From contig CALGKJ010000130.1 of the NCBI GenBank assembly GCA_937930535.1, positions 6,168 through 70,167 on the forward strand: DNA of 64,000 nt, in the 5' to 3' direction. Below, piece after piece: positions 44,984 to 64,000 of the stretch. The first letter of the stretch is position 1. Each line of letters opens with the position of its first letter. Under the pieces are notes generated by a model. It had not been told where the DNA came from. It saw nothing but the letters and a program-made list of their open reading frames with translations, and did no database searches. The DNA comes from an uncultured Clostridia bacterium. GTDB taxonomy: Bacteria; Bacillota; Clostridia; Lutisporales; Lutisporaceae. The position numbers were made by a program, and so were the translations under genes.

Positions 44984-45721
44984 ATGAAGAATTACAAAAA
45001 ATTAATTATTATCATACCTGTAGTTATAATAGTATCAATAGTTGCGTTTTTAGCTTTTTTTATAGTCCAGGAAAATATTGAATATCGAAAGATGACGCCA
45101 TTAAACACACAAGAAATAATACCAGATGTATATGCAGTTAATAATGGAAACGTTAATCTTTATTTGATTAAGAACAATGAGGGATATATAGCTATTGATG
45201 CTGGTTCAAGTCCTAATGTAACTAAAAGGGAATTGGATAAGCTGGGAATCAACCCTGATGATGTAACGATGGTATTTTTAACCCATACAGATATGGATCA
45301 TGTAGCTTCTGTAAAGCTTTTTAAAAATGCCAAGATTTATATTTCAGAAGAAGAAAAGCAAATGATAACTGGTGAGACCAAACGTAAACTAATATTTGGT
45401 AATAAACTGGATTGTGAATACAGTACATTAAAGGATGGGGAAAAAATAAATTCTTCCAATACGGAAATACAATGCATATTAACACCGGGACATACTATAG
45501 GATCCGCATGCTACATAGTAAACGGAGAGTTGCTTTTTTCAGGAGATACTATAAGCTTAAAGGTTGGAACAGTAGACACATTTAATAAACCGCTGAACAT
45601 GGATACTGAAGCTCAAAAGGATAGTATCAATAAGCTTAAGCAGTTGACAAACATAAAATATATTTTCACAGGTCATTACGGTTATTCCGATAATTTCGAA
45701 AAGGCTTTTAAAGAAAATTAG
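44984..45721 (+). CDS. Membrane-anchored metallo-beta-lactamase-fold hydrolase
   Basis: N-terminal TM helix (LIIIIPVVIIVSIVAFLAFFIV). MBL motif region FLTHTDMDHV reads H-x-D-x-D-H instead of H-x-H-x-D-H. Later His residues are in TPGHT and TGHYG. Confidence 0.75.
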   Translation: MKNYKKLIIIIPVVIIVSIVAFLAFFIVQENIEYRKMTPLNTQEIIPDVYAVNNGNVNLYLIKNNEGYIAIDAGSSPNVTKRELDKLGINPDDVTMVFLTHTDMDHVASVKLFKNAKIYISEEEKQMITGETKRKLIFGNKLDCEYSTLKDGEKINSSNTEIQCILTPGHTIGSACYIVNGELLFSGDTISLKVGTVDTFNKPLNMDTEAQKDSINKLKQLTNIKYIFTGHYGYSDNFEKAFKEN

Positions 45722-45754
45722 CATTTTAATAATTCCATTATTAGTAATTGAACA

Positions 45755-45801
45755 TTAAGATTACATTACAAATAATGGAATTATTTGTAATGTAATCTTA
45801 A
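45755..45801. repeat. Perfect 22-bp-arm palindrome (TTAAGATTACATTACAAATAAT-GGA-ATTATTTGTAATGTAATCTTAA)
   Basis: I checked the arms base by base. It lies between the MBL and acyltransferase genes, and no U-tract follows. Confidence 0.85.
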
Positions 45802-45960
45802 TCTATATCACAAATGCAATTATTTATTTCGTTTGTACAATAAGTGTTTTAAGTATAAGTATTATTATTCAGTGATGGGTTTGCTTTGAAGAAGCGCATA
45901 GCAGTTCAAAGTTTATATGTTTTTCTTAAATAACAATAATCTAAATCAGAGGTGAAGAAT

Positions 45961-47226: not shown

Positions 47227-47248
47227 TATTTGCGATGGAGAAGTGATT

Positions 47249-47944
47249 ATGAAAAAAATAAAACTATTTTGCTTGCCTTATGCAGGTGGAACAGCAGCAA
47301 TCTATAATAAATGGAAAAAATCCGTTAACAAGCATATAGAGGTATGTCCCATTGAATTGCCAGGCAGAGGGAAGCGGTTTATCGAGCCTCTATTTCATAA
47401 TATGTCAGACGCTGTTGATGATATTTTTCATAGTGTAAGAAACTATTTAGATGTTCAGCCATATGCCTTTTTTGGTTATAGTATGGGAAGCTGGCTGGCT
47501 TATGAGGTTATACGAAAAGCACTAAAGGCAGGCTACAGACCTCCAGTACATGCATTCTTTGCTGCAAAGGATGCACCTTCTGTAGTTCGTGATAAGGTAA
47601 AAATGCATTTGCTTGAACATGATGAGTTTGTTAATAGAATTTTAAAGCTCGGAGGCACTCCAGAAGGGATATTTGAAAATGACGAGCTGATGGAGATATT
47701 TGTTAATATACTAAGAACCGACTATGAGGTTGTGGAAACCTATAAGCATTGTGCCGCTGATAATAAAATAAACTGCAATATATCAGTTTTATATGGTGCA
47801 AAGGACAGCTATCCAGAGGAGGATGTAAAAGCTTGGACTGATATTACTAGCGGAAATTGCAGCTTTACCAGTTTTGATGACGGACATTTCTTTATTAATA
47901 ATTATCAGGATAAAATAATAAATATTGTAAACACAATGTTATAG
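47249..47944 (+). CDS. Type II (editing) thioesterase
   Basis: LFCLPYAGG N-terminus, nucleophile motif GYSMGS, C-terminal His in DDGHFF. About 230 aa. Confidence 0.88.
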   Translation: MKKIKLFCLPYAGGTAAIYNKWKKSVNKHIEVCPIELPGRGKRFIEPLFHNMSDAVDDIFHSVRNYLDVQPYAFFGYSMGSWLAYEVIRKALKAGYRPPVHAFFAAKDAPSVVRDKVKMHLLEHDEFVNRILKLGGTPEGIFENDELMEIFVNILRTDYEVVETYKHCAADNKINCNISVLYGAKDSYPEEDVKAWTDITSGNCSFTSFDDGHFFINNYQDKIINIVNTML

Positions 47945-47967
47945 AGAAACAACTTCAAAATTAAATT
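47942..47967 (+). repeat. M1 repeat, copy overlapping the thioesterase stop codon
   Basis: TAGAGAAACAACTTCAAAATTAAATT. 25/26 identical to 48091-48116, which lies 149 nt downstream. Confidence 0.85.
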
Positions 47968-47975
47968 CAACTATA

Positions 47976-48020: not shown

Positions 48021-48090
48021 TAAAATCATAAATGACAAACATAGTATCTTTAGCAGAATAAGTATTAACATAAATACTGTATCGTTTTGA

Positions 48091-48231: not shown

Positions 48232-51200
48232 ATGATCAAGCACAAGAACCTTATCGAAGCATTAGAGGGAGCACGAAAAGAGACAGAAAAAGGAATACGG
48301 TTTATTAATGGCGATAAGGACAGTACATTTGTTACTTATGAAGAATTATATCAAAATTCACTCATCATTTTAGGCTATTTGCAATCAATTGGAATAGAGC
48401 ATGGTTCTGAATTAGTATTTCAGATACAGGATAATGATCATACAATCTATATGTTTTGGGCTTGTCTTCTTGGCGGCTTTATACCAGTGCCTGTAGCAGT
48501 AGGAAATAATGATGAACACAGACTTAAACTGTTTAAAATATGGAGCTATCTAAATAATCCATATTTAGTTATAGATGCAAAGTCGCTCTCAGCATTAACT
48601 GTATACGGTAAAGAAAACAATTTAGAAAGTCAAATGGAAACAATGAAAAACAAGACTATCTATATTGAGAGTGTTTTCAACAAAAACTCAATCATTGTAA
48701 CATCAAATCAAGGCGTTATTCATATGCCGGAACCGGGCAGTATTGCCTTCATTCAATTTTCTTCTGGCTCAACAGGAGACCCAAAGGGCGTTATATTAAC
48801 TCATGAAAATCTGATAGCAAACATAATGGGGATAGTTATAGCTACAGAAACAACTAGCGACGATTCATTCTTATCTTGGATGCCTCTTACACATGACATG
48901 GGAATGATAGGTTTTCACTTAGTACCCTTAGCATTGCATATAAATCAATATCTGATTCCCACAAAACTATTTGTAAGACACCCAACCTTATGGTTAAAAG
49001 CGGTTAATGAATTTAGAGCGACATTAATAAGCTCACCAAACTTTGGCTATAGCTACCTGTTATCTCATTTTTCACAAGAAATTGCTAAAGACTGGGATTT
49101 ATCATGTGTCAGACTACTTGTTAATGGTGCAGAGCCTATTTCATATGAGCTATGTAACCAGTTCTTAGATGAAATGCTCAAATATGGTCTAAAAAGAACA
49201 AGTATGTTTACAGTATATGGTATGGCAGAAGCCTGTGTTGGAGTTGCTATGCCCCACTTAGGTCATGAATTTAAGACTGTAATGGTAGACCGAAACCATC
49301 TAGGCATTGGCGAACGTATAATAGAAATGAGTGCAGAAGATGCTAATGTTGTCGGTTTTGTCGAGGAAGGATATGCAATTGATTATTGCAGCCTTAGAAT
49401 ATGTGATGAAAAGGATAATGTTGTAGAAGACAGGGTTGTGGGTCAAATACAGATAAAGGGAGAAAACGTTACAAGGGGATATTATAATAATCCGGCGGCT
49501 ACGGAGAAAATCATTACAAAGGACGGATGGCTCAGAACTGGAGATCTTGCCTTTTTGCGTGATGGAAGTCTGGTGGTAACAGGAAGGCTTAAGGATATAA
49601 TCTTTGTTAATGGTCAGAACTTTTACCCCCATGATATTGAACGAGTATTGGAAGAGATTGAAGGCTTGGAAACAGGCAGAGTAGTAGCAGCAGGAGCTTT
49701 CAATAATGAAACTAAAGAAGAGGAAATTATAATATTTGTTTTATACAAAAAGAAGCTGGAAGATTTCTTGCCTTTAGCTTCACGTATTAAGTTACTTCTA
49801 AAAGAAAAAATTGGTCTATTTATCAGACATGTTGTTCCAATTAAGAAAGTACCAAAAACAACCAGTGGAAAGGTGCAAAGATACAAGCTGGCTGATATGT
49901 ATCAAGGAGGTAGCTTTTCAGAAGAGCTAAGCAAAATTGAGGAACTGAAAGCAGAAATTGCAGCTACGGAAAATAATGCTTTAACATATAGCGATACAGA
50001 GGAATTGGTTATTAAGCTGTGTAGAGATACCTTTAAAAATAATAATATTGATATTAATGGAAGCTTTGTTGAGCTGGGTATAAACTCACTGAAGCTTACT
50101 TCATTAGCATCAGCTATACACGAGCATCTGAATGTAGAAATTCCCTTAAAGGACATGTTTCAGATCTCAACCGTAAGGGAATTGGCAGAGTACATTTCAG
50201 ATTATCATGAGCAGAGTATATATTCATCTATTGAAGCGGTTGCAGGAAACCCTGAACATCCACAAGGCTGCTTTGAAGCATCCTCGGCACAGAAGAGGCT
50301 TTATGTAATAGATCAGATAGATACTGATACAATAGGGCCTAATACCGGCTATAATATGCCGGAAGCACTGCTTATTGAAGGTGAGCTGGATATAGCTGCA
50401 ATGGAGCAGGCATTTCGTACACTAATAAAAAGACATGAATCCCTGAGAACATCCTTTACAACTATAGACGGTGAACCTATTCAGAGAATTCATGATAATG
50501 TAGATTTCAAAATAAGCTGCTTTAAGACTACAGAGGATAAAGTAAATGATATCATGAGAGACTTTATCCGACCATTTACAATGGATGTTCCACCGCTTTT
50601 CAGAGTTGCTTTAATAGAAATAGCAGCTAATAAATATGTACTTGTACTGGACATGCATCACATCATATCTGATGGCTGGTCCGTAATGGTGCTGATAAAG
50701 GAGTTATTGCTGCTGCTTGAGGGGGAAAGTCTTCCTGATTTAGAGATTCAATACAAGGATTTTGCAGTATGGCAAAACAAGCTTTTTAAGTCGGATGAAA
50801 TGCAAAAGAAGGAAGAATACTGGCTGAAAAGGTTTGAAGTAAAGGATGGCGGTAAGCTGCCAGTACTAAACATTCCTACTGATTTTCCAAGACCTTCAAA
50901 TAAGTCCTATGAAGGCGACCGATTGGTAATAACAACCGGCAGAGAGCTGATTGATGCACTTAATAAAGTTGCAGAAATTACATCAAGTACTTTGCACATG
51001 GTAATGCTTGCAGCCTATACTATACTTCTTTCAAAATATTCGGGTCAGGAGGATATTATAGTAGGCTCGCCCATAGCTGGAAGACCTCACAAGGACTTAC
51101 AAGACATTATAGGAATGTTTATAAATATGTTAGCCAATAGAAATACTCCAAGACGTGATATGACCTTTAAAGATTTCCTAGCTGAGGTAAAAGAGAACTG

Positions 51201-51621
51201 CTTGAATACATATCAAAATCAGGAATATCAGTTTGATGAGCTTGTAAGCAAGCTTAAGGTAAAGCGAGACATGAGCAGAAATCCGTTGTTTGACTATGTT
51301 TTTGCGGTTCAAAATCTTGATATACCAGATATGCAAAATAGCAAAATATCAGTAAGACCATATGATTTTGCCTACAATATTTCAAGATTCGATATGTTCC
51401 TTTCTGTAATGGAAATGGGTGACAGTGTTAGATTCTTGCTTGAGTATTCAACTGCACTTTTCAAGAAAACAACAGCAGAGAGAATTATTAAGCACTACAT
51501 GGAAATCCTGGAACAAATCAAGGATAACGTAAATATTAGACTTGAAGATATAGTACTTAGTCATAACCTATCAACAGCTAAAAGCAATATTTTAAAATCA
51601 GATGATGATTTTGATTTTTAA
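48232..51621 (+). CDS. Lipoinitiation module: fatty acyl-AMP ligase (FAAL) - carrier protein - condensation domain
   Basis: FAAL-type motifs FSSGSTGDPKGV, WMPLTHDMGMIG, GYYNNPAAT, TGDLAF, TTSGKVQR. Carrier motif LGINSL. C-domain motifs SSAQKRLYV and HHIISDGWS. The C-terminal tail is NILKSDDDFDF. Confidence 0.9.
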   Translation: MIKHKNLIEALEGARKETEKGIRFINGDKDSTFVTYEELYQNSLIILGYLQSIGIEHGSELVFQIQDNDHTIYMFWACLLGGFIPVPVAVGNNDEHRLKLFKIWSYLNNPYLVIDAKSLSALTVYGKENNLESQMETMKNKTIYIESVFNKNSIIVTSNQGVIHMPEPGSIAFIQFSSGSTGDPKGVILTHENLIANIMGIVIATETTSDDSFLSWMPLTHDMGMIGFHLVPLALHINQYLIPTKLFVRHPTLWLKAVNEFRATLISSPNFGYSYLLSHFSQEIAKDWDLSCVRLLVNGAEPISYELCNQFLDEMLKYGLKRTSMFTVYGMAEACVGVAMPHLGHEFKTVMVDRNHLGIGERIIEMSAEDANVVGFVEEGYAIDYCSLRICDEKDNVVEDRVVGQIQIKGENVTRGYYNNPAATEKIITKDGWLRTGDLAFLRDGSLVVTGRLKDIIFVNGQNFYPHDIERVLEEIEGLETGRVVAAGAFNNETKEEEIIIFVLYKKKLEDFLPLASRIKLLLKEKIGLFIRHVVPIKKVPKTTSGKVQRYKLADMYQGGSFSEELSKIEELKAEIAATENNALTYSDTEELVIKLCRDTFKNNNIDINGSFVELGINSLKLTSLASAIHEHLNVEIPLKDMFQISTVRELAEYISDYHEQSIYSSIEAVAGNPEHPQGCFEASSAQKRLYVIDQIDTDTIGPNTGYNMPEALLIEGELDIAAMEQAFRTLIKRHESLRTSFTTIDGEPIQRIHDNVDFKISCFKTTEDKVNDIMRDFIRPFTMDVPPLFRVALIEIAANKYVLVLDMHHIISDGWSVMVLIKELLLLLEGESLPDLEIQYKDFAVWQNKLFKSDEMQKKEEYWLKRFEVKDGGKLPVLNIPTDFPRPSNKSYEGDRLVITTGRELIDALNKVAEITSSTLHMVMLAAYTILLSKYSGQEDIIVGSPIAGRPHKDLQDIIGMFINMLANRNTPRRDMTFKDFLAEVKENCLNTYQNQEYQFDELVSKLKVKRDMSRNPLFDYVFAVQNLDIPDMQNSKISVRPYDFAYNISRFDMFLSVMEMGDSVRFLLEYSTALFKKTTAERIIKHYMEILEQIKDNVNIRLEDIVLSHNLSTAKSNILKSDDDFDF

Positions 51622-51683: not shown

Positions 51684-53402
51684 ATGGAAATTAAAAATGT
51701 TTCACAAAAAAAGGATGAAAAAGCTCTAAAGGTTGTTCTGGGGATGATGCCCTACTGGACTCCTTTAAATCCACCCCAAGGAATAGGTATGCTAAAGGCA
51801 TATTTGCAGAAGTTTGGGTATAAGGTAAAGATTCTTGACCTTAATGTTCATGAAACCTTTAAGAAGGTTTACGTAGACTATTTTAAAAAGCTGGAAGAGT
51901 TTGTGCCTCCAGAGAAAAGAGGTAATTTCTATAATATCGGACATGATGTACTGCATAACCATATGATGGCAGCCTTCAAGTACACAGATGAAAATAAGTA
52001 CATAGAGCTGGTAAAAATATTAATATATCATACATATTATGTAAACATCAACAATGATCAAGCAAAAGAATTAAATGCGTTAATGAGCTTTTTCTACAAG
52101 GAATTAGAAGCATATTATACTAATCTGGTTGAAACAGAGAAGCCTGATGTTGTAGGATTCAGTATATTTAAAGGTAATATACCTGCTTCAATATTTGCTG
52201 CAAGAGTTGTAAAAAAACTGAATTCACAAATTAAGGTAGTTATGGGTGGAGGAGCTTTTGCTGATTCACATGCTGTAGGTTCACCAAATTACGATACACT
52301 TCTTAAGGAAACTGAAGACTGTGTAGATTTAATAATGAGAGATGGTCAAGGGGAGCAATCCTTATTAAAATTCTTGAGAGGCGAGATATCTGATAGGAGA
52401 GTTGTTTCCCTCAGTGACTTAGGGTTAACTCCAATACCTTTTAACCAGTTAGATATAGCAGATTTATCAGATATTAATACAGCAAGCTATCCATATATAA
52501 TAGCAACAGGTTCTTCAAGCTGTCCTAATGAATGCAGCTTCTGTAACTCATCAAGATATTGGGGCAAGTATAAAACAAAGGATATAAAACAGACAGTAAG
52601 CGAAATGATAAAGATGTATAAGAAATATGGAAACCAGTTATTCTTTATGTCTGATGCGCTGTTAAATCCAATAATCAGCGAGCTTTCTGCTGAATTTATA
52701 AATTCAGACTATACATTGTATTATGACTGCTATTTTAGAGTAGACGAGCCATCTGGAAACCTGGACAATACTATCCAGTGGAGACGTGGTGGTATGTATA
52801 GAACCAGAATAGGTGTAGAAAGCGGTTCTCAAAAGATACTTGATTTAATGCACAAGGAAATAAAGGTAGAGCAAACCAAGGAAACACTATATGCTTTGGC
52901 TACTGCGGGAATAAAAACCACAACGTATATAGTTATCGGACATCCAGACGAGACAGAGGAAGATTTCCAAATGACCCTTGATCTAGTTGAGGAGATGAAG
53001 GATTATATCTGGCAGGCTGAACCAAATCCTTTCTACTATCATTATGCAGGTCAGTTTGATTCAGATCAATGGGCAGATAAGAGAGAACTGCTTTATCCGG
53101 CAGAGGCTAGAGATATGCTGGTATTTGATACATGGACATTAAAATGCGAGCCTATGAGAGAAGAAAGATATAACAGATTACATCGTTTTATGGCTCACTG
53201 TGCTAAGCTTGGCATACCAAATCCATATAATGCTACTCAGCTGCACAATGCGGATGAAAGATGGAAGAAGCTTCATAAGAATGCAGTACCATCAATATGG
53301 GAATTCGAAAGATGGGGCAAAATGGTGCATGAAGCTAAGCAAATCGTAAAATTAGCTGGTGCAAAGAATATTTTAAGTAATGATGATGACTTCGGTTTTT
53401 AA
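51684..53402 (+). CDS. Stand-alone B12-binding-domain radical SAM enzyme (class B-like)
   Basis: N-terminal cobalamin-binding-like Rossmann segment. The CPNECSFC cluster (CxxxCxxC) is at 52521-52544. GGAGGT precedes ATG 51684. The C-terminal tail is NILSNDDDFGF. Confidence 0.85.
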   Translation: MEIKNVSQKKDEKALKVVLGMMPYWTPLNPPQGIGMLKAYLQKFGYKVKILDLNVHETFKKVYVDYFKKLEEFVPPEKRGNFYNIGHDVLHNHMMAAFKYTDENKYIELVKILIYHTYYVNINNDQAKELNALMSFFYKELEAYYTNLVETEKPDVVGFSIFKGNIPASIFAARVVKKLNSQIKVVMGGGAFADSHAVGSPNYDTLLKETEDCVDLIMRDGQGEQSLLKFLRGEISDRRVVSLSDLGLTPIPFNQLDIADLSDINTASYPYIIATGSSSCPNECSFCNSSRYWGKYKTKDIKQTVSEMIKMYKKYGNQLFFMSDALLNPIISELSAEFINSDYTLYYDCYFRVDEPSGNLDNTIQWRRGGMYRTRIGVESGSQKILDLMHKEIKVEQTKETLYALATAGIKTTTYIVIGHPDETEEDFQMTLDLVEEMKDYIWQAEPNPFYYHYAGQFDSDQWADKRELLYPAEARDMLVFDTWTLKCEPMREERYNRLHRFMAHCAKLGIPNPYNATQLHNADERWKKLHKNAVPSIWEFERWGKMVHEAKQIVKLAGAKNILSNDDDFGF

Positions 53403-53464: not shown

Positions 53465-56400
53465 ATGAATAAATCTGGCATAGCAGCAATAGCTGCGAGT
53501 CAACATGTAAAAGAAGGCGAATATTGGTTAAATAAACTATCAGGTGAGCTTGTAAAAAGCTTCTTCCCATATGATCACAATGTTACTGATACAAATAAAT
53601 ACAAAACAGTAACAGCCAAAGCCAGCTTTGAGCTTTCAGGAGAAATATATTCAAAGCTGTCAAAGCTAAGCAATGGTGCAGACGCAAGACTATTTATGAT
53701 TTTAGTAACCGGCATCAGCTTACTGCTGGACAGATATACAGGAAACAGTGACGTAGTTATTGGCGCACCAATATTTAAGCAGGAAGAAGAAGCGGAATTC
53801 GTAAATACAGTGCTTGCCTTAAGAAATGAAATTAAGAGAGATGGTTCCTTTAAGGATTTGCTGCTTCAAGTAAAGGATACAATTTTTGAAGCCTCCGAAA
53901 ATCAAAACTATCCTATGGAAACACTACTGTACCAGTTGGGTATGGAACAGGAAGAAAACAGCTTCCCATTATTTGAGGTAGTAGTATTATTAGAAAATGT
54001 ACATAACAAAAGCTATATAAGCAATATTATGACAAGCATAGTAATGTCCTTTAATAATACAAAAGACGTTATTAAGGGTGAAATAGAATACAATACGTCC
54101 TTATATGAAGCTGAAACCATCGAAAGAATAATAACACATTTTAAGAATCTGCTTTTATGCGGAGTAAGCAATGTTAATGCCAAGCTTTCTGAGCTTACTA
54201 TGCTTCCAGAAGAAGAAAAGCAGCTTATACTAAATAGCTTTAATAACAGTGCAGTACCTTATCCAAAGGAAAAAACCATATCCGGGCTATTTGAAGAGCA
54301 GGTTAAGCTGACACCGGAATGCATGGCTGTACAATTTGAAGGTGAAGCACTTACATATGCTGAGCTTAATAAGAAAGCAAACAGCCTTGCAAGAATATTG
54401 AGAGAGCATGGTGTAGGAACCTCAGAAGGCAACAATATTGTTGCAATTATGGTTGACAGATCCCTTGAAATGGTAGTTGGCATGATGGCGATACTTAAGG
54501 CTGGCGGAGCTTATCTTCCAGTTGATCCAGAGTATCCTGCTGAAAGAAAGCAGTTTATGCTGAAGGATAGTGATGTAAAGGTTCTGCTAATAAAGGGTGC
54601 AGTTAATGAAGAAATAGAGTTTGAAGGCACTATAATAGACTTAGAAAAAGAAAAAAATTACCTAGGAAATTCTGAAAACCTAGAAACAATTTCTTCAGAT
54701 TCATTGGCATATATCATATATACATCAGGATCAACAGGGCAGCCAAAGGGTGTACTTGTAAAGCACACTACTATTGTTAATACACTGACATGGAGAAAGG
54801 ACTACTATCAATTTACTGATAAGGATGCTGTACTGCAAATTCCTTCCTTCTCCTTTGACAGTTCAGTTGAAGATATATTTACACCACTTATAAGCGGTTC
54901 AAAGCTGGTACTTGTAAATAACCAGAACAGATTTAACGTTGCATATCTGCAAGAGGTTGTTACTGACTGCAAGGTAACACACTTCCTGATTACTCCTGGT
55001 TTATACAAGGTATTTATGGATGAGTATCCAGAAAGCTTAAAGTATCTGAGAATCATAACTGTAGCTGGAGATAAGTTTAACGAAGATTTGGTTAAAGAGC
55101 ACTTTGAGAAGCTTAATAACGTTAGATTTATTAATGAGTATGGGCCGACAGAAAACAGCGTTTGCTCAACGGTTTACGAAATTACACCAGAAAATATGAA
55201 GGTACTTATTGGTAAACCAATAAATAATGTAAAATGCTATATCGTTGATAAATACGGCTGCTTATGCCCAGTAGGGATACCCGGCGAGCTATGCGTATCG
55301 GGGACAGGCTTGGCAGTAGGATACCTAAACAGACCAGAGCTGACAAGTGAAAAGTTTATTAATAACCCATATGCAGAGGGCGAGAGGTTATATAAAACTG
55401 GTGACCTTGCAAGATGGCTGCCAGATGGAAATATAGAATTTTTAGGCAGAATAGATCATCAAGTAAAAATCAGAGGCTTTAGAATAGAGCTTGGTGAAAT
55501 CGAAAACCAATTGTTAACTCATGAACAGGTAAAAGAAACCCTAGTAATAGCTAAAGAAAATTGTGACGGCACAAAATATCTTGTTCAATACTTTACAGCC
55601 AATGAAAAGCTGACTGTACCTGAGCTTAGATGGTGTCTGGCAGACGCTCTTCCAGAGTACATGATTCCAGCTCATTTTGTACAGTTAGACAAAATGCCAT
55701 TGACTCCAAATGGAAAGATTGACAGACGAGCTCTTCCAGAACCAGAAGAAAATCTGGACTCATCAGCTATATATGAGGAGCCAACCAACGAAACAGAAGA
55801 AGAGCTTGTAACAGTATGGAAGGAAATACTTGACCTGGAAAAGGTAGGTATAAACGATAATTTCTTTGAAGTAGGCGGACACTCTCTTAGAGCAACTATA
55901 CTGGTTTCACAAATAAGAAAGAGATTCCATGTTGATGTGCCATTAAGAGAAATATTCAGAAAGCCAACAATAAAACAGCTGGCAAAGTTCATAGATCGTG
56001 GAGAAAAGAATATCTATATATCCATTCAGCCAGTTGAGAAGAAGGAATACTATCCAGCATCTCCAGCACAAAAGAGAATGTATCTGGTTAACAAGGTGGA
56101 TGGTATAGGGGTTACATATAACGTACCATTGGCTATGCATATTGACAAACATCTGGATAAGGAAAGAACTCAGAATGCTTTTGCTGAAATAGTAAAAAGA
56201 CATGAGGCCTTTAGAACCTCCTTTGACTTTGTTGAGGATGAATTAGTACAAAGAGTACATGATGAAGTAAATTTTGAAATAGATTACATGGAAGCTGAAG
56301 AAAATCAGGTTAACAAAATAGCTGAAAGCTTTGTACGTACCTTTGATTTCAAAGCAGCACCACTTCTCAGAGTTATGCTAATAAACCTGAAGGAAGGCAA

Positions 56401-59188
56401 AAGCATCCTAATGACAGATATGCACCACATAATATCTGATGGTGTGTCAATGGATATATTGGTTAAAGAGTTTGTTACATTATATGAAAATAAAGAACTG
56501 CCTGAGCTTAGAATCCAATACAGAGACTTTACTGCATGGCAGAATACAATGATAAACAGCGATGCAATGAAAGAGCAAAAGGAATTCTGGTTAAGGGAAT
56601 TCGCAGGAGAGCTTCCAGTGCTTAATATGCCAACTGATTATCCAAGACCGGCAGTACAAAGCTTTGAAGGAGACAAGGTAAGAGTAAAGGTAGATGAAGA
56701 AACTACCACTGCATTATTAGGACTAGCTAATAAGACAGGTACAACCTTATTCTCAGTAATGCTAGGAGCATACAATGTATTGCTGTCCAAGTACTCAGGA
56801 CAGGATGATATAGTTGTTGGTACTCCTATAGCCGGCAGAACCAGCACGGACTTAGAAAATGTAATAGGTATGTTTATCAATATGCTTGCATTACGAAACT
56901 ACCCAGAAAGCACCAGGAGCTTTAGGGATTTCTTAAAGGATGTAGGAGAAAATTCAATAAGAGCATTTGAAAATCAGGATTATCAATTTAACGATTTAGT
57001 TGATGCTTTACGTCCAGACAGAAATATGAGCAGAAGTCCTCTATTTGATACAATGTTTGCACTTCAAAATATGGAGTTCAGACAAACAGAGATAGATGGC
57101 ATCAGATTTGGTCTGGAAGATGTTGAAACAAAAATCTCCAAGTTTGATATAACAACTATTGCTATAGAAAGAAATAATCAGATAGATTTAATATTTGAAT
57201 ACTGCACAAAGCTGTTCAAAAAAGAAACCATGGAAAGATTTGCTAATCATTATGTGAAGCTGTTAAAAGAAGCTGTTAATAACCCAGATAATAAACTATA
57301 TGAGCTTCAAATGATTTCAGAATGTGAACAAAAGCAAATACTAAACAGCTTCAATAACAATAAAGTAGAATATGATAAAACCAGAACGATACAAAGCCTG
57401 TTTGAAGAGCAAGCAGCTAAAACTCCTGACAATGTCGTTGCAGTATATAAAGATAAGTCCATGACCTACAAGGAAATGAACGAAAAGGCTAATCAGCTTG
57501 CTGCTGCATTAAGAAACAATAAAATCAATACTAATGATATAGTAGGCATAATGGTTGAAGAGTCCTTGGAGATGCTAGTAGGAATAATGGGTATCTTAAA
57601 GGCAGGAGCGGCATATCTGCCCATAGATCCTCAATACCCGCAGGATAGAATCAAATACATGCTGGAAGACAGCAAAGCAGTAATGCTGCTTACACAAGAG
57701 CATTTGCTTGAGCAGGTTAAATATGAAGTCAAGATAATAAATCTTGACAGTTCAGAAGCATATGCAGCAAATAAAGAAAATGTGACATGTGAAAGCAAGG
57801 CGGATGATATAGCATATGTAATATATACCTCTGGTTCTACAGGAAAGCCTAAGGGAGTTATGGTGGAGCACAAGGCTCTTGCAAATCTATGTCAGTGGCA
57901 CAATAAATACTATGAGGTTACTGCTGAAGATAGAGCAACAAAATATGCAGGTTTTGGCTTCGATGCTTCTGTTTGGGAAATATTCCCTTACCTAATATGC
58001 GGAGCATCAATCCACTTAATAGACAAGAAGATTAAGCTGGATACTATTAAGCTTAATGAGTACTTTGAGAAAAACAATATAACCATAAGCTTTTTACCGA
58101 CACAAATATGCGAGCAGTTTATGGATTTAAACAATACCTCCCTAAGAAAGCTTTTGACTGGCGGAGATAAGCTGAATCAATTTACAAAGAAAGCCTATGA
58201 GTTGATAAACAACTACGGTCCAACTGAAAACACTGTTGTAGCTACAAGCTTCGTAGTAGATGAATATTACAGTAATATTCCTATAGGAAAGCCAATAACA
58301 AATACAGAAGCTTATGTACTGGATAAATACAACAACTTACAGCCAGTTGGAGTACCGGGAGAATTATGCATAAGCGGTGACAGTCTGGCAAGAGGATATC
58401 TGAATAAACCAGAGTTAACAAAAGAAAAATTTGTAGAAAACCCATTTGAAGCAAACACACTGATGTATCGTACAGGAGACCTTGTAAAGTGGCTGCCTGA
58501 TGGCAATATAGAATTCCTTGGCAGAATAGATTATCAAGTAAAAATCAGAGGCAACAGAATAGAGCTGGGTGAAATAGAAAATCAACTGCTTAAGCATGAA
58601 GACATTAAAGAAGCTGTAGTAATAGCAAGAGACGACAAAGGCGAAAACAAATACCTCTGTGCTTACTTAGTTACTGAAAAGGAAATGACCGTAGCAGATA
58701 TAAAGGAACATCTGTCAAAAGAGCTTCCTGAATATATGATTCCATCATATTTTGTTCAGGTAGACCAAATACCAATGACCTCAAACGGCAAGGTAGATAA
58801 GAAAGCACTGCCTGAGCCAGATGGAAGCATAAGTACAGGCGTTGAATATGCAGCACCAACAAGTGAAACAGAAGAAAAGCTTGTTGCAATATGGCAGGAG
58901 GTACTAGGAGTTGAAAAGATAGGTACTAACGACAACTTCTTTGACCTTGGCGGTAACTCGCTGCTTATGATGAAGGTAATAAGCAAGATCTGTACTCTGT
59001 TTAATGCATCAGAAGAGGAAATTACAGTTATGACAATGTTTAAATATCCTACTATAGCACTTATGGCTAAGCAGTTGGACGGAGAATCTGCTGTTGATAA
59101 GAGTTCCTTTGAACAAATCTCCAGCAGAATCGAAAGGAGAAACCAAGCTGCAAGAAGACCTACAAGCGGGAGGGGCAGAAATGAGTAA
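53465..59188 (+). CDS. Bimodular NRPS: [C-terminal half of a C domain]-A-T-C-A-T
   Basis: Two A domains (YTSGSTGQPKGV / YTSGSTGKPKGV, NEYGPTEN / NNYGPTEN, GELCVSG / GELCISG, KIRGFRIELGEIE / KIRGNRIELGEIE). Carrier motifs GGHSL and GGNSL. One full C domain (HHIISDGVS). The N-terminal ~245 aa match only the post-His half of a C domain. ATG 53465 follows GGAGGG. Confidence 0.92.
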   Translation: MNKSGIAAIAASQHVKEGEYWLNKLSGELVKSFFPYDHNVTDTNKYKTVTAKASFELSGEIYSKLSKLSNGADARLFMILVTGISLLLDRYTGNSDVVIGAPIFKQEEEAEFVNTVLALRNEIKRDGSFKDLLLQVKDTIFEASENQNYPMETLLYQLGMEQEENSFPLFEVVVLLENVHNKSYISNIMTSIVMSFNNTKDVIKGEIEYNTSLYEAETIERIITHFKNLLLCGVSNVNAKLSELTMLPEEEKQLILNSFNNSAVPYPKEKTISGLFEEQVKLTPECMAVQFEGEALTYAELNKKANSLARILREHGVGTSEGNNIVAIMVDRSLEMVVGMMAILKAGGAYLPVDPEYPAERKQFMLKDSDVKVLLIKGAVNEEIEFEGTIIDLEKEKNYLGNSENLETISSDSLAYIIYTSGSTGQPKGVLVKHTTIVNTLTWRKDYYQFTDKDAVLQIPSFSFDSSVEDIFTPLISGSKLVLVNNQNRFNVAYLQEVVTDCKVTHFLITPGLYKVFMDEYPESLKYLRIITVAGDKFNEDLVKEHFEKLNNVRFINEYGPTENSVCSTVYEITPENMKVLIGKPINNVKCYIVDKYGCLCPVGIPGELCVSGTGLAVGYLNRPELTSEKFINNPYAEGERLYKTGDLARWLPDGNIEFLGRIDHQVKIRGFRIELGEIENQLLTHEQVKETLVIAKENCDGTKYLVQYFTANEKLTVPELRWCLADALPEYMIPAHFVQLDKMPLTPNGKIDRRALPEPEENLDSSAIYEEPTNETEEELVTVWKEILDLEKVGINDNFFEVGGHSLRATILVSQIRKRFHVDVPLREIFRKPTIKQLAKFIDRGEKNIYISIQPVEKKEYYPASPAQKRMYLVNKVDGIGVTYNVPLAMHIDKHLDKERTQNAFAEIVKRHEAFRTSFDFVEDELVQRVHDEVNFEIDYMEAEENQVNKIAESFVRTFDFKAAPLLRVMLINLKEGKSILMTDMHHIISDGVSMDILVKEFVTLYENKELPELRIQYRDFTAWQNTMINSDAMKEQKEFWLREFAGELPVLNMPTDYPRPAVQSFEGDKVRVKVDEETTTALLGLANKTGTTLFSVMLGAYNVLLSKYSGQDDIVVGTPIAGRTSTDLENVIGMFINMLALRNYPESTRSFRDFLKDVGENSIRAFENQDYQFNDLVDALRPDRNMSRSPLFDTMFALQNMEFRQTEIDGIRFGLEDVETKISKFDITTIAIERNNQIDLIFEYCTKLFKKETMERFANHYVKLLKEAVNNPDNKLYELQMISECEQKQILNSFNNNKVEYDKTRTIQSLFEEQAAKTPDNVVAVYKDKSMTYKEMNEKANQLAAALRNNKINTNDIVGIMVEESLEMLVGIMGILKAGAAYLPIDPQYPQDRIKYMLEDSKAVMLLTQEHLLEQVKYEVKIINLDSSEAYAANKENVTCESKADDIAYVIYTSGSTGKPKGVMVEHKALANLCQWHNKYYEVTAEDRATKYAGFGFDASVWEIFPYLICGASIHLIDKKIKLDTIKLNEYFEKNNITISFLPTQICEQFMDLNNTSLRKLLTGGDKLNQFTKKAYELINNYGPTENTVVATSFVVDEYYSNIPIGKPITNTEAYVLDKYNNLQPVGVPGELCISGDSLARGYLNKPELTKEKFVENPFEANTLMYRTGDLVKWLPDGNIEFLGRIDYQVKIRGNRIELGEIENQLLKHEDIKEAVVIARDDKGENKYLCAYLVTEKEMTVADIKEHLSKELPEYMIPSYFVQVDQIPMTSNGKVDKKALPEPDGSISTGVEYAAPTSETEEKLVAIWQEVLGVEKIGTNDNFFDLGGNSLLMMKVISKICTLFNASEEEITVMTMFKYPTIALMAKQLDGESAVDKSSFEQISSRIERRNQAARRPTSGRGRNE

Positions 59189-62100
59189 CGACAACACTCA
59201 AAATTTTGGCGATAATATAGCAATTATCAGTCTGGCTGGAAGATTTCCGGGGGCTGACAGCATAAATGAGTTTTGGAATAATATTAAAAACGGTGTTGAG
59301 TCAATACAATTCTTCACAGATGAAGAATTGAAGAAATCCAATATAGAACCGGCTTTATTTAATGATTCCAACTATGTAAAGGCTGGAGCTGTAATTGAAG
59401 ACATAGACATGTTTGATCCACAGTTCTTTGGCTTTAATAAAAGAGAAGCAGAAATACTAAACCCACAGCACCGTATGTTTCTTGAATGTGCTTGGGAAGC
59501 CATCGAAAGTGCAGGCTATAATCCAGAAACATATAATGGCAGGATAGGAGTTTACGCAGGTGAAGGCTTTAATACCTATCTGCTGAACATTGCATCAGAC
59601 CCGCATTTAGCAAGTACAATGAACGAAATACAGATGCTTATAGGTAATGATAAGGACTTTCTGGCAACACAGGTGTCCTATAAGCTTAACCTGAAAGGAC
59701 CAGGCGTTACCGTTCAATGCGGCTGCTCAACCTCCCTTGTTGCATTGACAATGGCATGTCAGGGACTAAACAGCTATCAATGTGATATGGCACTGGCTGG
59801 GGGCATAAGGCTCGGTATTCCACAGAAGGGAGGCTACCTTTATAAAGAAGGTAGCATCCTGTCCCCTGATGGGCACTGTAAGCCCTTTGACGAAAAGGCC
59901 AATGGCACAGTAGGCGGAAACGGAGCTGCTATAGTAGCCTTAAAGAGACTTGAGGATGCTTTGGCGGACGGAGACTACATATATGCCGTAATAAAGGGAA
60001 CAGCAATTAATAATGATGGTTCCCTGAAAATAGGTTACACCGCCCCCAGTATTGAGGGACAGTCTGAGGTTATATATGAAGCACAAGAGGTAGCTGGCAT
60101 AAACCCTGAAAATATAGAATATATCGAAACCCATGGAACAGGTACAGAGTTGGGTGATCCAATAGAGTTTAACGCTTTAACAGAGGTATATAGAAATAAA
60201 ACCAGCAAAAAAAGATTTTGTGCTCTAGGTTCAGTTAAAGCCAATATCGGACATTTGGATGCCGCCGCTGGAACTGCCGGAGTAATAAAAGCAGCACTGA
60301 CTCTTAAAAATAAGACAATACCTCCATGTGTAAATTTTGAAAAGCCAAACCCAAAGCTTAAGATGGAAGATAGTCCATTTTATGTACCAACAGAAGCTCT
60401 TGCGTGGAAAAGCGAAGGAAAGCCTCGCAGAGCAGGAGTAAGCTCCTTTGGTATAGGGGGTACAAATGCCCATGTAGTGCTTGAAGAAGCACCAGAAATA
60501 CAAAGTACAGTATCCAATAAGCCTTGGCATATGCTTACACTATCTGCAAAAACAGAGAACGCTTTAGATAATATGACTATTAATTTACTGGAATTCTTGA
60601 GAAACAACCCAGAGACTAATCTTGCAGATGCGGCACACACCTTGCAAATGGGCAGAAAAGAGTTTAACCATAGAAAAGCTGTCGTTTGTAATAACATAGC
60701 AGATGCGGTAGAAGTAATGGAAAAATCCTTTAATGAACGTATAGTAAAAGGCAGCGGAGAAGTAACTGGAAGAGGCGTAGTATTCATGTTCCCAGGTCAA
60801 GGCTCTCAATATATCAACATGGGACTGGAATTGTATAAAAATGAGAAAATATTTAAAGAACAGGTAGATTTATGTGCCAAGCTGTTAGAACCCCATCTGG
60901 GATTGGATCTGCGTGAGGTTTTATTTCCAAATGATCAGGAAGCAGATGCAGAGCAGATAAATCAAACCTATCTGGCACAGCCAGCGTTGTTTACCATGGA
61001 ATATGCAATGGCACAAACACTAATAAGCTATGGCATAGTACCAAAGGCTATGGTAGGACATAGTGTTGGTGAATATGTAGCGGCATGTATATCTGGTGTC
61101 ATTACCCTAAAGGAAGTACTGCCCTTAATCGCTGCAAGAGGCAGAATGATGCAGGGACAGCCTCGTGGAGTTATGACAGCAGTATCAGAATGTGAAAAAG
61201 AAGTGCTGCCGCTGCTTAATGAAGATGTATCTATTGCTGCTGTTAACAGCCCTATGTCCTGTGTAATATCAGGACCAGAGGAAAAGGTATCAGAGGTTGA
61301 AGCAGTATTGGAGCAAAAGGGCGTAAAATACGTAAGGCTGCATACCTCACATGCTTTCCATTCATCTATGATGGATTCCATAATAGAGCCTTTTGCAGCC
61401 AAGGTAGGCAAAGCACAGCTAAATGCACCAAAAATACCAATAGTATCAAACCTGACAGGTACATGGCTGAAGGATGAGGAAGCAAAGGATCCAATTTATT
61501 GGGCTAGACATTTGGCAGAGGCTGTAAGATTCTCTCAATGTCTGGAGGAGCTTTTAAAGGACGACAGCTTGGTATTAATAGAAGCCGGACCAGGAAATAC
61601 ACTTAGTACGCTGGCAAAGCAGCAAATTAATAAGGAATCCAATATAAAAGTAGTACCTACAATGAGGCATCCTCGCCAAAAGAACTCGGACACAGCAGTG
61701 TTATACTGCGCTTTAGGCAAGATGTGGTCAGAAGGCATAAAGGTTAACTTCTCAGAGCTTTATAAGAATGAAAAGAGAATGAGAATACCTCTGCCAACAT
61801 ACCCATTTGAAAGAATAAGCTGCTGGATGGGCGGGGATAGAAAAACACAAAAGCCTGTAGATGCCATAAAAAAAGCAGCTAAGAACCCGGAAGTATCTGA
61901 ATGGCTTTATGCCCCATATTGGAAGCCGGCAGTACCAGTGGAACAAGTTGAGGAAAATAGCTTAAAATGGCTGATATTTGCTGATGAGCATGGAATAGCA
62001 GACAGCGTGGCTTCAAGACTTAATAGCATGGGTAATGAAACAACAATGGTATATGCTGGAGAAAAATATAAAGCTGACGAAAACGATTCATACAGTTTAA

Positions 62101-63764
62101 ATCCTGAAAAAGCGGAAGATTACGTAGAGTTATTTAAGACCTTGAAGTCAAAGGATAAGCTGCCAGACAACATCATTCATTTATGGTGTGTTGATGACAA
62201 ACATAAGGAAGATAAAAGCAGATACTTTGAAGAAATGCAAAACAGGGGCTTTTATAGCTTGATAAATATAGCAAAAGCAATCAGCAAGCTAAATATTATT
62301 GAACAAGTAAAAATTTCAGTAGTAACTGATTGTATGCAGGAAGTTTGCGGAGAAAAGGAGCTGCACCCTGAAAAGGCTACAGTACTTGGTGCAGTAAGAG
62401 TAATACCACAGGAATATATGAATGTATCCTGTATAAGCATAGATATAAACATAGCAGACAAGCTAAGTCAGTGTGAATATATGGCAGAAAATATTATCAG
62501 AGAAACTCAAAAGGGCGGAAGCGAGTATGCAATAGCCTACAGAGGAAGCTCAAGATGGGTACAAAGCTTTGAAAGCATAAAGCCATCAGGAAATAACATA
62601 ACGACTTATCTTAAGAATGAAGGCGTTTATCTCGTAACCGGAGGTCTGGGAAATATAGGCTTGATATTTGCAGGGCATTTAGCCAAGGAATACAAAGCAA
62701 AGCTTGTACTAATCAGCAGAACTGAATTCCCGGAAAAAGATCAGTGGACACAATGGCTTGCAGCAAAAGGCAGCGAAGATTCTGTCAGCAAAAAGATAGT
62801 GAAGCTTATGGAATTAGAAGAAGCTGGAGCAGAGGTGCTAATATATGTAGCAGACGTATCCAGTGAAGAGCAGATGCAGAAAGCTGTTGAAACAGCAGTT
62901 GCGAGGTTTGGAATAATTAATGGAGTAATCCATGCAGCAGGAGTTGTCGGTGAAAAAACTTACAGCTCTATCCAAGAGCTAGATATTGCTAAATACAAAG
63001 AACAAGCTGTACCTAAAATATATGGCACAAATGTATTGGCGAAGGTTTTAAGAGACATAAAATTGGATTTCTATTTAATGGTATCGTCTTTATCAGTAGT
63101 GCTTGGAGGACTTGGACTATCTGCTTATTCAGCAGTAAATCTATATATGGATGCTTTTGCGAGAAAATGTAATACACAAAGTGAAGTACCGTGGATTAGT
63201 GCAAACTGGGACGGATGGGCATTTACAGAAAAGGTTGAAAGTCCTGACGGATTCTTCATATCACCTGAGGAAGGCGTAAAAGCTCTAGGTTATGTATTAG
63301 CAAAGGGCATGATGAAAAACACAATAGTCTCCAGTGGAGATCTAAAGCATAGAATTGACCGTTGGGTAATAAGCAGTAATGCTGGCATTAAGAACAATGC
63401 CCAGTCAAAACAAGGCAGAAAAGATTGTACTGGCGGACAAGGAAATGAGCTGGAACAAAAAATAGCTTACATATGGAGTGACTTATTGGGAGTTGAGCAG
63501 CTAGGGTTAAATGATGATTTCTTTGAATTGGGAGGAAATTCACTTATTGCCGCACAAGTCATATACCGTATGAGAGCTGAACTGCAATTGGATATGCCCA
63601 TAAAAGAATTTTTTGATACTCCTACTGTCAGCGGTATTGCAAAAAAGATTCAAAGTATGGAGGATAATAAGAAAAAAATTGCTGAAGCTCTAAATTCAGT
63701 CAAGTCCCTTTCAAAAACAGAAGTGGAAAAGCTGTTAGAACAAGTTAAAGCAAGAAAGGAATAA
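59181..63764 (+). CDS. Type I PKS module KS-AT-KR-ACP
   Basis: KS motifs GCSTSLVA, ETHGTGT and NIGHLDAAAG. AT motifs GQGSQY, GHSVGEY and HAFHS (malonyl-type). KR motifs TGGLGNIG and YSAVN. ACP motif GGNSL. ATG 59181 overlaps the NRPS stop (ATGAGTAA). The ORF track extends to 59094. Confidence 0.92.
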   Translation: MSNDNTQNFGDNIAIISLAGRFPGADSINEFWNNIKNGVESIQFFTDEELKKSNIEPALFNDSNYVKAGAVIEDIDMFDPQFFGFNKREAEILNPQHRMFLECAWEAIESAGYNPETYNGRIGVYAGEGFNTYLLNIASDPHLASTMNEIQMLIGNDKDFLATQVSYKLNLKGPGVTVQCGCSTSLVALTMACQGLNSYQCDMALAGGIRLGIPQKGGYLYKEGSILSPDGHCKPFDEKANGTVGGNGAAIVALKRLEDALADGDYIYAVIKGTAINNDGSLKIGYTAPSIEGQSEVIYEAQEVAGINPENIEYIETHGTGTELGDPIEFNALTEVYRNKTSKKRFCALGSVKANIGHLDAAAGTAGVIKAALTLKNKTIPPCVNFEKPNPKLKMEDSPFYVPTEALAWKSEGKPRRAGVSSFGIGGTNAHVVLEEAPEIQSTVSNKPWHMLTLSAKTENALDNMTINLLEFLRNNPETNLADAAHTLQMGRKEFNHRKAVVCNNIADAVEVMEKSFNERIVKGSGEVTGRGVVFMFPGQGSQYINMGLELYKNEKIFKEQVDLCAKLLEPHLGLDLREVLFPNDQEADAEQINQTYLAQPALFTMEYAMAQTLISYGIVPKAMVGHSVGEYVAACISGVITLKEVLPLIAARGRMMQGQPRGVMTAVSECEKEVLPLLNEDVSIAAVNSPMSCVISGPEEKVSEVEAVLEQKGVKYVRLHTSHAFHSSMMDSIIEPFAAKVGKAQLNAPKIPIVSNLTGTWLKDEEAKDPIYWARHLAEAVRFSQCLEELLKDDSLVLIEAGPGNTLSTLAKQQINKESNIKVVPTMRHPRQKNSDTAVLYCALGKMWSEGIKVNFSELYKNEKRMRIPLPTYPFERISCWMGGDRKTQKPVDAIKKAAKNPEVSEWLYAPYWKPAVPVEQVEENSLKWLIFADEHGIADSVASRLNSMGNETTMVYAGEKYKADENDSYSLNPEKAEDYVELFKTLKSKDKLPDNIIHLWCVDDKHKEDKSRYFEEMQNRGFYSLINIAKAISKLNIIEQVKISVVTDCMQEVCGEKELHPEKATVLGAVRVIPQEYMNVSCISIDINIADKLSQCEYMAENIIRETQKGGSEYAIAYRGSSRWVQSFESIKPSGNNITTYLKNEGVYLVTGGLGNIGLIFAGHLAKEYKAKLVLISRTEFPEKDQWTQWLAAKGSEDSVSKKIVKLMELEEAGAEVLIYVADVSSEEQMQKAVETAVARFGIINGVIHAAGVVGEKTYSSIQELDIAKYKEQAVPKIYGTNVLAKVLRDIKLDFYLMVSSLSVVLGGLGLSAYSAVNLYMDAFARKCNTQSEVPWISANWDGWAFTEKVESPDGFFISPEEGVKALGYVLAKGMMKNTIVSSGDLKHRIDRWVISSNAGIKNNAQSKQGRKDCTGGQGNELEQKIAYIWSDLLGVEQLGLNDDFFELGGNSLIAAQVIYRMRAELQLDMPIKEFFDTPTVSGIAKKIQSMEDNKKKIAEALNSVKSLSKTEVEKLLEQVKARKE

Positions 63765-63769
63765 TAATA

Positions 63770-64000
63770 ATGGATATATTAAATAGTCTTAATGAATTAT
63801 CGCCGGAACAACAGGAATTATTAGCCGAGCTGCTAAAACAGCAAGGAATTGATATATCTCAATATGTAGGCAGTGAAGATAAATATTCATCTATACAGCC
63901 TGTAGAAAAGAAAGATTATTATGCAGTTTCTTCTGCACAAAAACGTTTATATGTATTAAGTCAGATGGATGGAACTTATATAAGCTATAATATGCCAGGC
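63770..64000 (+). CDS. Next NRPS protein (N-terminal docking region plus start of a condensation domain), truncated by the window end
   Basis: My own translation from ATG 63770 gives MDILNSLNELSPEQQELLAELLKQQG...YYAVSSAQKRLYVLSQMDG (C1 motif). The frame stays open to base 64000. Confidence 0.8.
   Translation, partial: MDILNSLNELSPEQQELLAELLKQQGIDISQYVGSEDKYSSIQPVEKKDYYAVSSAQKRLYVLSQMDGTYISYNMPG

Follow-up and report, generated by a model that had tools for sequence, protein, structure and literature searches.

The DNA analysed here (the window) is a stretch of 64,000 nucleotides from an uncultured Clostridia bacterium (contig CALGKJ010000130.1). From position 44984 to the window end at 64000, its plus strand carries eight co-directional genes that form a hybrid assembly line combining non-ribosomal peptide synthetase (NRPS) with cis-acyltransferase (cis-AT) polyketide synthase (PKS) proteins. 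The cluster is real and intact and shows no visible decay, since its domains, its catalytic motifs and a stop/start overlap between two of its genes are all preserved. It is a new hybrid lipopeptide cluster, ordinary as a kind; the way in which its subunits are joined, and in which a radical S-adenosylmethionine (rSAM) enzyme is recruited to them, is conserved and apparently undescribed. In the explanation that we consider probable, an acyl-His-Leu-ketide-peptide line would be joined by pairing of short C-terminal tails with a truncated condensation (C) domain (truncC), and a probable cobalamin rSAM methylase would dock at the same place. More tentatively, with a confidence somewhat short of even, the F-x-F tail and orphan C-lobe are proposed as a new NRPS docking class at a split between C and adenylation (A) domain (C/A split), whose donor tail a widespread cobalamin rSAM family would have adopted for on-line tailoring in trans.

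The genes and domains of the line itself are given below (FAAL, fatty acyl-AMP ligase; ACP, acyl carrier protein; T, thiolation domain; KS, ketosynthase; AT, acyltransferase; KR, ketoreductase; ORF, open reading frame).

48232..51621, plus strand: loading protein FAAL-ACP-C, 1129 aa; Pfam AMP-binding, PP-binding and Condensation
51684..53402, plus strand: stand-alone cobalamin-type rSAM enzyme, 572 aa (ORF 576); Pfam Radical_SAM 55.7 bits, B12-binding 40 bits vs 32.1
53465..59188, plus strand: NRPS with the layout truncC-A1(His)-T-C-A2(Leu)-T, 1909 aa ORF; Pfam Condensation x2, AMP-binding x2, PP-binding x2
53510..54247, plus strand: truncated C domain, C-terminal lobe only, without HHxxxDG, at the N-terminus of the NRPS
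59181..63764, plus strand: PKS with the layout KS-AT(malonyl)-KR-ACP, 1527 aa; Pfam ketoacyl-synt, Acyl_transf_1, KR and PP-binding
63770..64000 (cut by the window end), plus strand: next NRPS, N-terminal docking helix followed by a C domain; extended to 506 aa by contig L001

L-numbers denote fetched loci or contigs and P-numbers database proteins. The half C domain named in an earlier, sequence-only reading of the window is real: residues 18-263 of the NRPS align, at 31% identity (E=6e-33), with positions 181-442 in the complete C domain further along the same chain. That reading had treated the half domain and the rSAM enzyme as incidental; comparison shows a conserved unit. Since the rSAM stop is separated from the NRPS ORF by only 56 nt, the missing N-lobe is not encoded just upstream, and since the preceding FAAL-ACP-C protein already has a complete C domain, truncC is an extra, non-catalytic piece. 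Its N-terminal signature ..KE.EYWLNKLSGEL...FPYD was found at nine tail/truncC junctions in six distinct related clusters.

The loading protein FAAL-ACP-C ends in an acidic C-terminal tail, ...SDDDFDF (nt 51598-51618), and the C-terminus of the rSAM enzyme reads ...NDDDFGF (DDDFGF, nt 53382-53399). A tail of the F-x-F type closed all nine C-domain-ended subunits that were seen:

Window: DFDF
L008: DFCF
L015: DFLF
L010: AFDL
L011: YFNF and DFGF
L012: DFNF
L014 and L015, second NRPS of each: VFNF

Each tail-bearing locus also had a truncC-headed subunit. Three of the nine tail/truncC junctions were without an rSAM gene, and the pair is therefore regarded as a general feature of subunit junctions that is not bound to the rSAM enzyme. 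Subunits ended by a T domain or ACP had other termini, and at the start of their partners stands either a KS or a full C domain preceded by a helical element. Among unrelated fragments of C domains, which came from Paenibacillus, Brevibacillus, Abyssisolibacter and metagenomes, 16 of 120 likewise had an F-x-F end.

The rSAM family was collected by a profile search of 1.84 billion representatives, resulting in 1,143 50%-identity representatives at E<=1e-30; 1,142 homologs were word-indexed. The family spans Bacillota, Acidobacteriota, Aminicenantes and Kapabacteria. Tail statistics were obtained from the 120 best homologs (46-100% identity). The end F-x-[FLIY]-COOH was present in 112 of these, the motif lay at most 2 residues from the end in 118, and the last ten residues contained about three acidic residues on average. 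In the AF2 model of the window enzyme (pLDDT 91), only the last ~18 residues and the N-terminus were of low confidence, with the tail disordered. The rSAM gene was located among NRPS genes in nine of nine loci fetched (seven distinct clusters from four phylum-level groups), and in every case in which the contig includes the upstream gene, it followed a C-ended protein. Distant members of ~50% identity, from an Acidobacteriota and a Kapabacteria metagenome-assembled genome (MAG) and a JGI metagenome, directly follow a C-ended NRPS protein.

Natural fusions were also found. The proteins P0373 (2,077 aa) and P0375 (1,377 aa) have the order rSAM-truncC-A-(A)-T, and the tail is replaced in them by a linker into the truncC motif. 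P0368 consists of an rSAM domain and a full C domain, and a subfamily of ~1,100-1,230 aa consists of an rSAM domain and a C-like domain, with the F-x-F tail ending most members. The tail is thus carried by two unrelated types of protein that have nothing in common but their place in front of a truncC subunit; it disappears where the rSAM enzyme is fused with that partner and persists where the fusion is with a C domain at the other side. Together, these observations argue that the rSAM enzyme is physically placed at the junction between C and truncC-A-T. These points, and the position of the rSAM gene between two subunits across phyla, also speak against a reading in which the F-x-F end is a degron, a folding element or a trait that came along with the C-A linker, and the rSAM enzyme acts on a free precursor (amino acid or fatty acid) or on the released peptide. 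That reading draws on the finding that DscE methylates released discodermins in vitro (PMC12858407) and on the variation of the amino acid that follows the rSAM enzyme; it is considered rather improbable. The preferred docking model, which was derived by sequence comparison, is well supported by it: C-ended subunits would find their partner by binding of the acidic C-terminal F-x-F tail to the orphan C-lobe of the next subunit.

Docking classes of NRPS proteins were compared with those listed in a 2021 review, namely COM (E-C junction; E, epimerisation domain), PAX three-helix bundles and SLiM/beta-hairpin elements (T-C junction), none of which is placed at a C/A split (PMC9113145). The tail/truncC pair resembles SLiM/betaHD elements in that a short C-terminal element would be recognised by the N-terminus of the next subunit. 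Unlike COM, PAX and SLiM, it is found at a C/A junction, and the acceptor is a C-lobe of ~245 aa in place of an element of 30-60 aa. Likewise unlike these, the donor is acidic and ends in F-x-F-COOH, and a tailoring enzyme has the same donor motif. The junction is neither of the E-C nor of the T-C kind and the acceptor is not a short helical or hairpin element, which places the pair outside the COM, PAX and beta-hairpin classes.

The likely start of the rSAM gene, 51684, is supported by an exact database protein (P0121). The CxxxCxxC motif reads CPNECSFC, and C280, C284 and C287 were invariant in 42 homologs; the homologs aligned share no N-terminal triad of Cys residues like that of methylthiotransferases. 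The best PDB sequence match was MgmA (9ccb, E=6e-8). The top folds retrieved with Foldseek were TsrM, MgmA, OxsB, AprD4, CysS and TokK; the solved enzymes share 11-15% sequence identity with the window enzyme. C-methylation, presumably of an unactivated carbon, is the most likely chemistry. This assignment is derived from the class of the enzyme, because the TM-scores are modest and folds that do not use B12 also score well.

Several results weigh against the preferred explanation. The fold matches reached TM-scores of no more than 0.45-0.69, and the well-scoring folds included AprD4 and MiaB/RimO, enzymes that work without B12. No named NCBIfam cut-off was reached by the rSAM enzyme; the best model was TIGR03975 (C-methyltransferase of ribosomally synthesised and post-translationally modified peptides) with 101 vs 282 bits, and the PhpK family gave 94 vs 600 bits. 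The residue after the rSAM enzyme is His here and Asn-like in L011 and L012 (DLTKVGEV and DLTKIGEV). In L010, the gene after the rSAM gene encodes a PKS, and the truncC subunit is located upstream. Neither a release domain nor a phosphopantetheinyl transferase (PPTase) was found in the window or, in two orthologs, within the 10 kb that follow the PKS. Finally, McyG, which activates phenylpropanoids, was the best structural relative of the FAAL, so that a starter other than a fatty acid is conceivable.

The fold and family results bear on a further explanation, in which the rSAM enzyme docks as proposed but catalyses another radical reaction on the tethered intermediate, for example a cross-link (C-C or C-N), a desaturation, a rearrangement or an epimerisation. 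OxsB and AprD4 (the latter with the fold but without B12) score close to the methylases in Foldseek, no methylase family cut-off was reached, and no E domain was detected by Pfam in the window's part of the line. The closest families (TIGR03975 and PhpK) and the top folds TsrM, MgmA, CysS and TokK are methylases, on the other hand, and CysS and DscE, the only characterised B12-rSAM enzymes of NRPS pathways found in the literature, methylate. A non-methylating enzyme is accordingly considered unlikely, though a contender to be kept in mind. For the favoured methylase, the target would at a guess be a carbon close to the backbone, either in the acceptor residue or in the newly formed condensation product. 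As the A codes differ between loci, the assumption that the A domain following the rSAM enzyme determines its target was rejected.

Related enzymes of known function were used for comparison. Only a small number of B12-rSAM methylases of NRPS pathways are known. CysS of the cystobactamid pathway (9n1c/9n1d, with a pantetheinylated substrate in the solved structure) and DscE of the discodermin pathway are of the same class and fold, and their genes lie in NRPS clusters; DscE differs in acting on the released peptide (PMC12858407). The combination of an NRPS with an rSAM C-methyltransferase was called unusual in the same Entotheonella paper of 2025 (PMC12858407). In the literature on rSAM enzymes of the CysS/DscE type, no conserved C-terminal docking tail, no inter-subunit position and no fusion to C or truncC-A-T was found. 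MgmA (methyl-coenzyme M reductase glutamine C-methylase) and TsrM, the best fold matches, both methylate an amino-acid carbon. They differ in being remote relatives without NRPS context, with a ribosomal protein and free Trp as substrates. No description of the tail/truncC pair, of the rSAM family, of the rSAM-NRPS arrangement or of a system with the A1 code string was found in the mostly open-access literature searched.

Two side observations concern the distant loci. In L010 (Acidobacteriota, GCA_030837085.1), the truncC-headed NRPS at L010:2-4720 contains a second, unrelated B12-binding/radical SAM domain. This domain (CSQRCFYC, 26% identical to the window enzyme) is located just after the start of the A domain and is followed by the A core and a T domain; as read from its sequence, the subunit carries an rSAM domain in cis, inside an NRPS module. 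In L011 (Kapabacteria), a 66-aa ORF with a CATCNGNC motif and without Pfam match is located between the rSAM gene and the truncC-headed NRPS gene (L011:9351-9551).

The assembly line as a whole is proposed to work as follows. The FAAL-type ligase would load an acyl starter, most likely fatty acyl, onto its own ACP, and the C domain at the end of the loading protein would couple this starter with the His carried by the first T domain of the subunit that follows. At this acyl-His step the rSAM enzyme, with the same tail, would dock at the same junction and modify the carrier-bound intermediate. Leu would be added next, and KS-AT-KR-ACP would add one malonate and reduce it to the beta-hydroxyl stage. 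As judged from the orthologs, two further NRPSs would contribute at least Thr, another residue and Phe, with more to follow. The order of domains supports the product suggested before, an acylated dipeptide extended by one malonate with ketoreduction and by further amino acids.

The catalytic motifs of the loading protein were intact (FAAL SGSTGDPKG, ACP GINSL). PDB matches of the adenylating domain were the FAALs 3pbk and 3kxw, FadD32, FadD23 and FadD28, besides McyG. The best single-domain NCBIfam model was the FAAL model NF006624, below its cut-off (334 vs 600 bits). By these matches, the domain is placed in the fatty acyl-AMP ligase clade, and the starter is most likely, but not certainly, a fatty acid. 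The C domain is complete (profile positions 5-448 of 456) and closest to the elongation C domain of TycC (2jgp, E=6e-128); the surfactin synthetase C-domain chains 8f7f/8f7h were much further away (~1e-25). A starter (Cs) subtype was therefore rejected, as judged by PDB matches only. Of the lipoinitiation function assigned from sequence, the FAAL-type ligase, the ACP and the C domain were confirmed, and the C domain is not of the starter subtype.

The NRPS starts with ATG 53465 (gene call in L007), slightly off the ORF list. Motifs of the C domains (MHHIISDGWS and MHHIISDGVS) and of the T domains (GGHSL, GGNSL) were intact. With the A3 and A10 motifs, the phosphopantetheine Ser and HHxxxDG all present, two complete modules plus the loading C domain were recognised. 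For extraction of the specificity codes, the A4-A5 cores were aligned to the GrsA-PheA segment, which was checked for self-consistency against published positions 235-331. The code of A2 is DAWFLGNVV(K), the canonical Leu code; DAWFLGNVVK is the commonest Leu signature (PMC12283262). The code of A1 is DSE(L/I)TAEVC(K), with L or I depending on the placement of a 3-residue insertion, and Table S21 of the same work (PMC12283262) gives DSELTAEVCK for His in BacC/SubC (bacitracin His module). The strings HAFHS, FDSSVED and FDASVWE reported before are all present. The aromatic specificity suggested for A2 was replaced by Leu; the string read in A1 was confirmed, and its full code now gives His. Both codes are shared by L008 and L009/L014, and A1 of L015 reads DSELTAEIC.

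The PKS start overlaps the NRPS stop by 8 nt (ATGAGTAA), exactly as claimed for positions 59181-59188. Motifs of a type I cis-AT PKS were found in all domains (KS CSTSL/HGTGT/NIGHL, AT GHSVGE and the malonyl-type HAFHS, KR GGLGNIG, ACP GGNSL). Neither an LDD nor a W stereo motif was seen in the KR on motif inspection. Orthologs are P0253 (66%) and P0258 (62%), and the nearest named relatives, at 40-44% identity, are from Paenibacillus and Bacillus. A PKS scan of a genome collection (185,579 species representatives) gave no ortholog; its best match, L002, was rejected as an ortholog, as the PKS is 49% identical and the PKS-NRPS is differently organised and without an rSAM gene. When homologs were sought with the first 506 aa of the downstream NRPS, its full-length form was not among the results; the contig end probably truncates this NRPS.

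Other metagenomes were found to contain four orthologous clusters (L008, L009/L014, L013 and L015/L016). Close relatives of the rSAM enzyme, with 60-75% identity, are encoded on metagenomic contigs. The gene order is AT, FAAL-ACP-C, rSAM, NRPS, PKS in L008 and rSAM, NRPS, PKS in L009/L014 and L013; the full order is kept in L015/L016. Identities to the window proteins were 54% for the metallo-beta-lactamase-fold hydrolase (MBL), 63% for the discrete AT, 59% for FAAL-ACP-C, 73% for the rSAM enzyme, 65-69% for the NRPS and 62-66% for the PKS. In both orthologs that continue past the PKS, an NRPS of 2,631/2,621 aa follows, the N-terminus of which matches the window gene at 63770 (64-66%). Its layout is C-A(Thr, DFWNIGMVH)-T-C-A-T-C with the VFNF tail. 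It is followed by an NRPS of 2,640/2,611 aa, which starts with truncC-A(Phe, DAWTIAAIC) and extends beyond the loci fetched. Because of these two further NRPSs, the cluster extends, by orthology, over at least 35 kb. The claim of a hybrid lipo-NRPS/PKS cluster running off the window is borne out by them and by the domains present.

The T domain behind the Thr module has the sequence GGDSIKAI in both L014:12272-20167 and L015:14593-22458; this form is typical of T domains that precede epimerising domains. The next C domain showed no canonical HHxxxDG in a pattern search and may be of the dual E/C kind or atypical in some other way.

These comparisons also bear on whether the cluster could be a decayed or silent remnant, with truncC as a deletion scar. 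The lack of a visible release domain or PPTase and the catalytically dead C domain without HHxxxDG would fit such a remnant. Against it, every catalytic motif is intact and no gene is interrupted, which also answers the check for degenerate motifs proposed with the first reading. The truncC boundaries and N-terminal motif are the same in four orthologous and three distant clusters, and full-length genes are kept in the orthologs at 54-73% identity without disruption of their order. A remnant is hardly credible on this evidence, and the preferred reading remains that of an intact line with truncC as the proposed acceptor. All claimed domains were far above the curated Pfam cut-offs (48-555 bits for the NRPS A, T and C domains), and every domain that the sequence-only reading had named was recovered by Pfam, as were its eight co-directional plus-strand genes, their coordinates and the short or overlapping junctions. 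The distances between successive genes are +230, +16, +287, +50, +56, -8 and +5 nt. As noted before, neither a thioesterase (TE) nor a reductase (R) release domain is visible in the window.

Known assembly lines of similar build were compared. FAAL-ACP lipopeptide and hybrid lines (mycosubtilin/iturin type, puwainaphycins) and NRPS-PKS lines of Clostridia and Paenibacillus have the same acyl-AMP ligase and ACP feeding C-A-T modules. They also have a cis-AT KS-AT-KR-ACP between NRPS modules and a discrete type II thioesterase (TEII), as here. The present cluster differs from them in its elongation-type loading C domain, the rSAM enzyme in line and the truncC heads. No gene-for-gene match to a known cluster was found among the relatives (MIBiG was outside the search).

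Three genes, presumably accessory, precede the loading protein, and the intergenic region before them was divided as follows.

44984..45721, plus strand: membrane-anchored MBL, 245 aa; Pfam Lactamase_B, 59 bits
45952..47226, plus strand: discrete FabD-type malonyl transferase, 424 aa; TIGR00128 fabD, 325 bits vs cut-off 261; Pfam Acyl_transf_1
47243..47944, plus strand: TEII, 233 aa; Pfam Thioesterase 135 bits, GYSMGS motif
43903..43962, plus strand: hairpin and T-run; inverted repeat I3 with 18-nt arms, 89% complementary, then TTTTTTT
43963..44983, plus strand: AT-rich non-coding cluster leader

The three accessory proteins may serve in processing or immunity, malonyl supply and editing, respectively. 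The membrane anchor reported for the MBL was verified as an N-terminal transmembrane helix. Its metal motif reads H-T-D-M-D-H vs H-x-H-x-D-H (window 45260-45300, residues ~98-106). The L016 MBL, which heads the orthologous cluster there, has 54% identity, the same anchor and the same substitution (HTDYDH), and the motif is thus a conserved variant and not decay. Motifs of the discrete AT were intact (GHSLGE, SAPFHC). The true AT start is probably 45961, which was preferred because the product from 45952 is not on record. Orthologs of the AT are present in L016 (63%) and L008 (48%). As the MBL and the AT recur in orthologous clusters, both are conserved cluster members; the TEII is missing from the corresponding position in L016. 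The C-terminal extension of the AT (~130 aa, residues ~300-424, window 46900-47226) had no family match. An AT length class of 421-426 aa recurs in L008, in L016 and in the unrelated PKS-NRPS cluster L002. It was also observed that this discrete AT stands beside a cis-AT PKS module.

The spacer before the cluster, estimated previously at ~1.1 kb, measures 1,081 nt (43903-44983) from the 3' end of the upstream thiF-like gene. It falls in the 2-kb block of lowest GC content (0.287), within a window of ~0.35 throughout. The hairpin, as judged from its sequence, is a probable terminator closing the neighbouring operon. The top promoter-like site in the leader is TTGACA-17-TATACT (44426-44454); promoter-like sites in the leader were not above shuffled expectation (27 vs 23.6) and are given as leads only, the combined promoter and terminator scan there having stayed at chance level. 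An exact 13-nt direct repeat, GATTTCGACAAAA, is located at 44388-44400 and 44589-44601, 201 nt apart and near the site at 44426-44454; it is possibly a regulator site, or due to chance in AT-rich DNA. The Rfam scan of the window gave no match.

Genes upstream encode a V-type ATPase subunit D, a flavorubredoxin-type protein, a methyl-accepting chemotaxis protein and a sigma-54 activator, and further an aldehyde:ferredoxin oxidoreductase (AOR) and MoaD/ThiF-like proteins. This gene content indicates an anaerobic, Clostridia-like Bacillota host. The host is regarded as being of spore-forming type. The window DNA recurs as short contigs in run ERR9287890, of which L001 matches without mismatch and adds 1,288 nt. 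Exact look-ups with the PKS, FAAL and rSAM sequences gave the short Logan contigs L001 and L007 only.

The flank of the ortholog L016 (run SRR27396957) is unlike the window's own flank (AOR, MoaD, ThiF). A membrane alpha/beta hydrolase precedes the MBL there, and the cluster starts at L016:2788, ~390 nt after a truncated sigK (upstream region L016:1-2402). This sigK covers only SigK profile positions 4-119 of 235 and then diverges, and a serine recombinase and cotJABC adjoin. In that relative the cluster may ride on a sigK-intervening (skin-like) element. The earlier suggestion of an accessory island gains support, as the MBL-AT-FAAL start of the ortholog sits in a different neighbourhood (serine recombinase, cotJ, truncated sigK).

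The predicted product is a new acyl-His-Leu-hydroxyacyl-Thr-...-Phe lipopeptide from an uncultured anaerobe, a group from which few non-ribosomal products are known. The junction rule offers a way to predict the order of NRPS subunits in uncultured bacteria where the genes are not colinear, as in L010, and the tail and truncC could serve as a compact docking pair for engineering NRPSs split at the C/A boundary. To our knowledge, few non-ribosomal pathways functionalise C-H bonds of a carrier-bound peptide by radical chemistry. The present family points to more than 1,000 radical SAM enzymes that may act on assembly lines and, if the proposal is true, would represent an on-line radical tailoring step in non-ribosomal synthesis.

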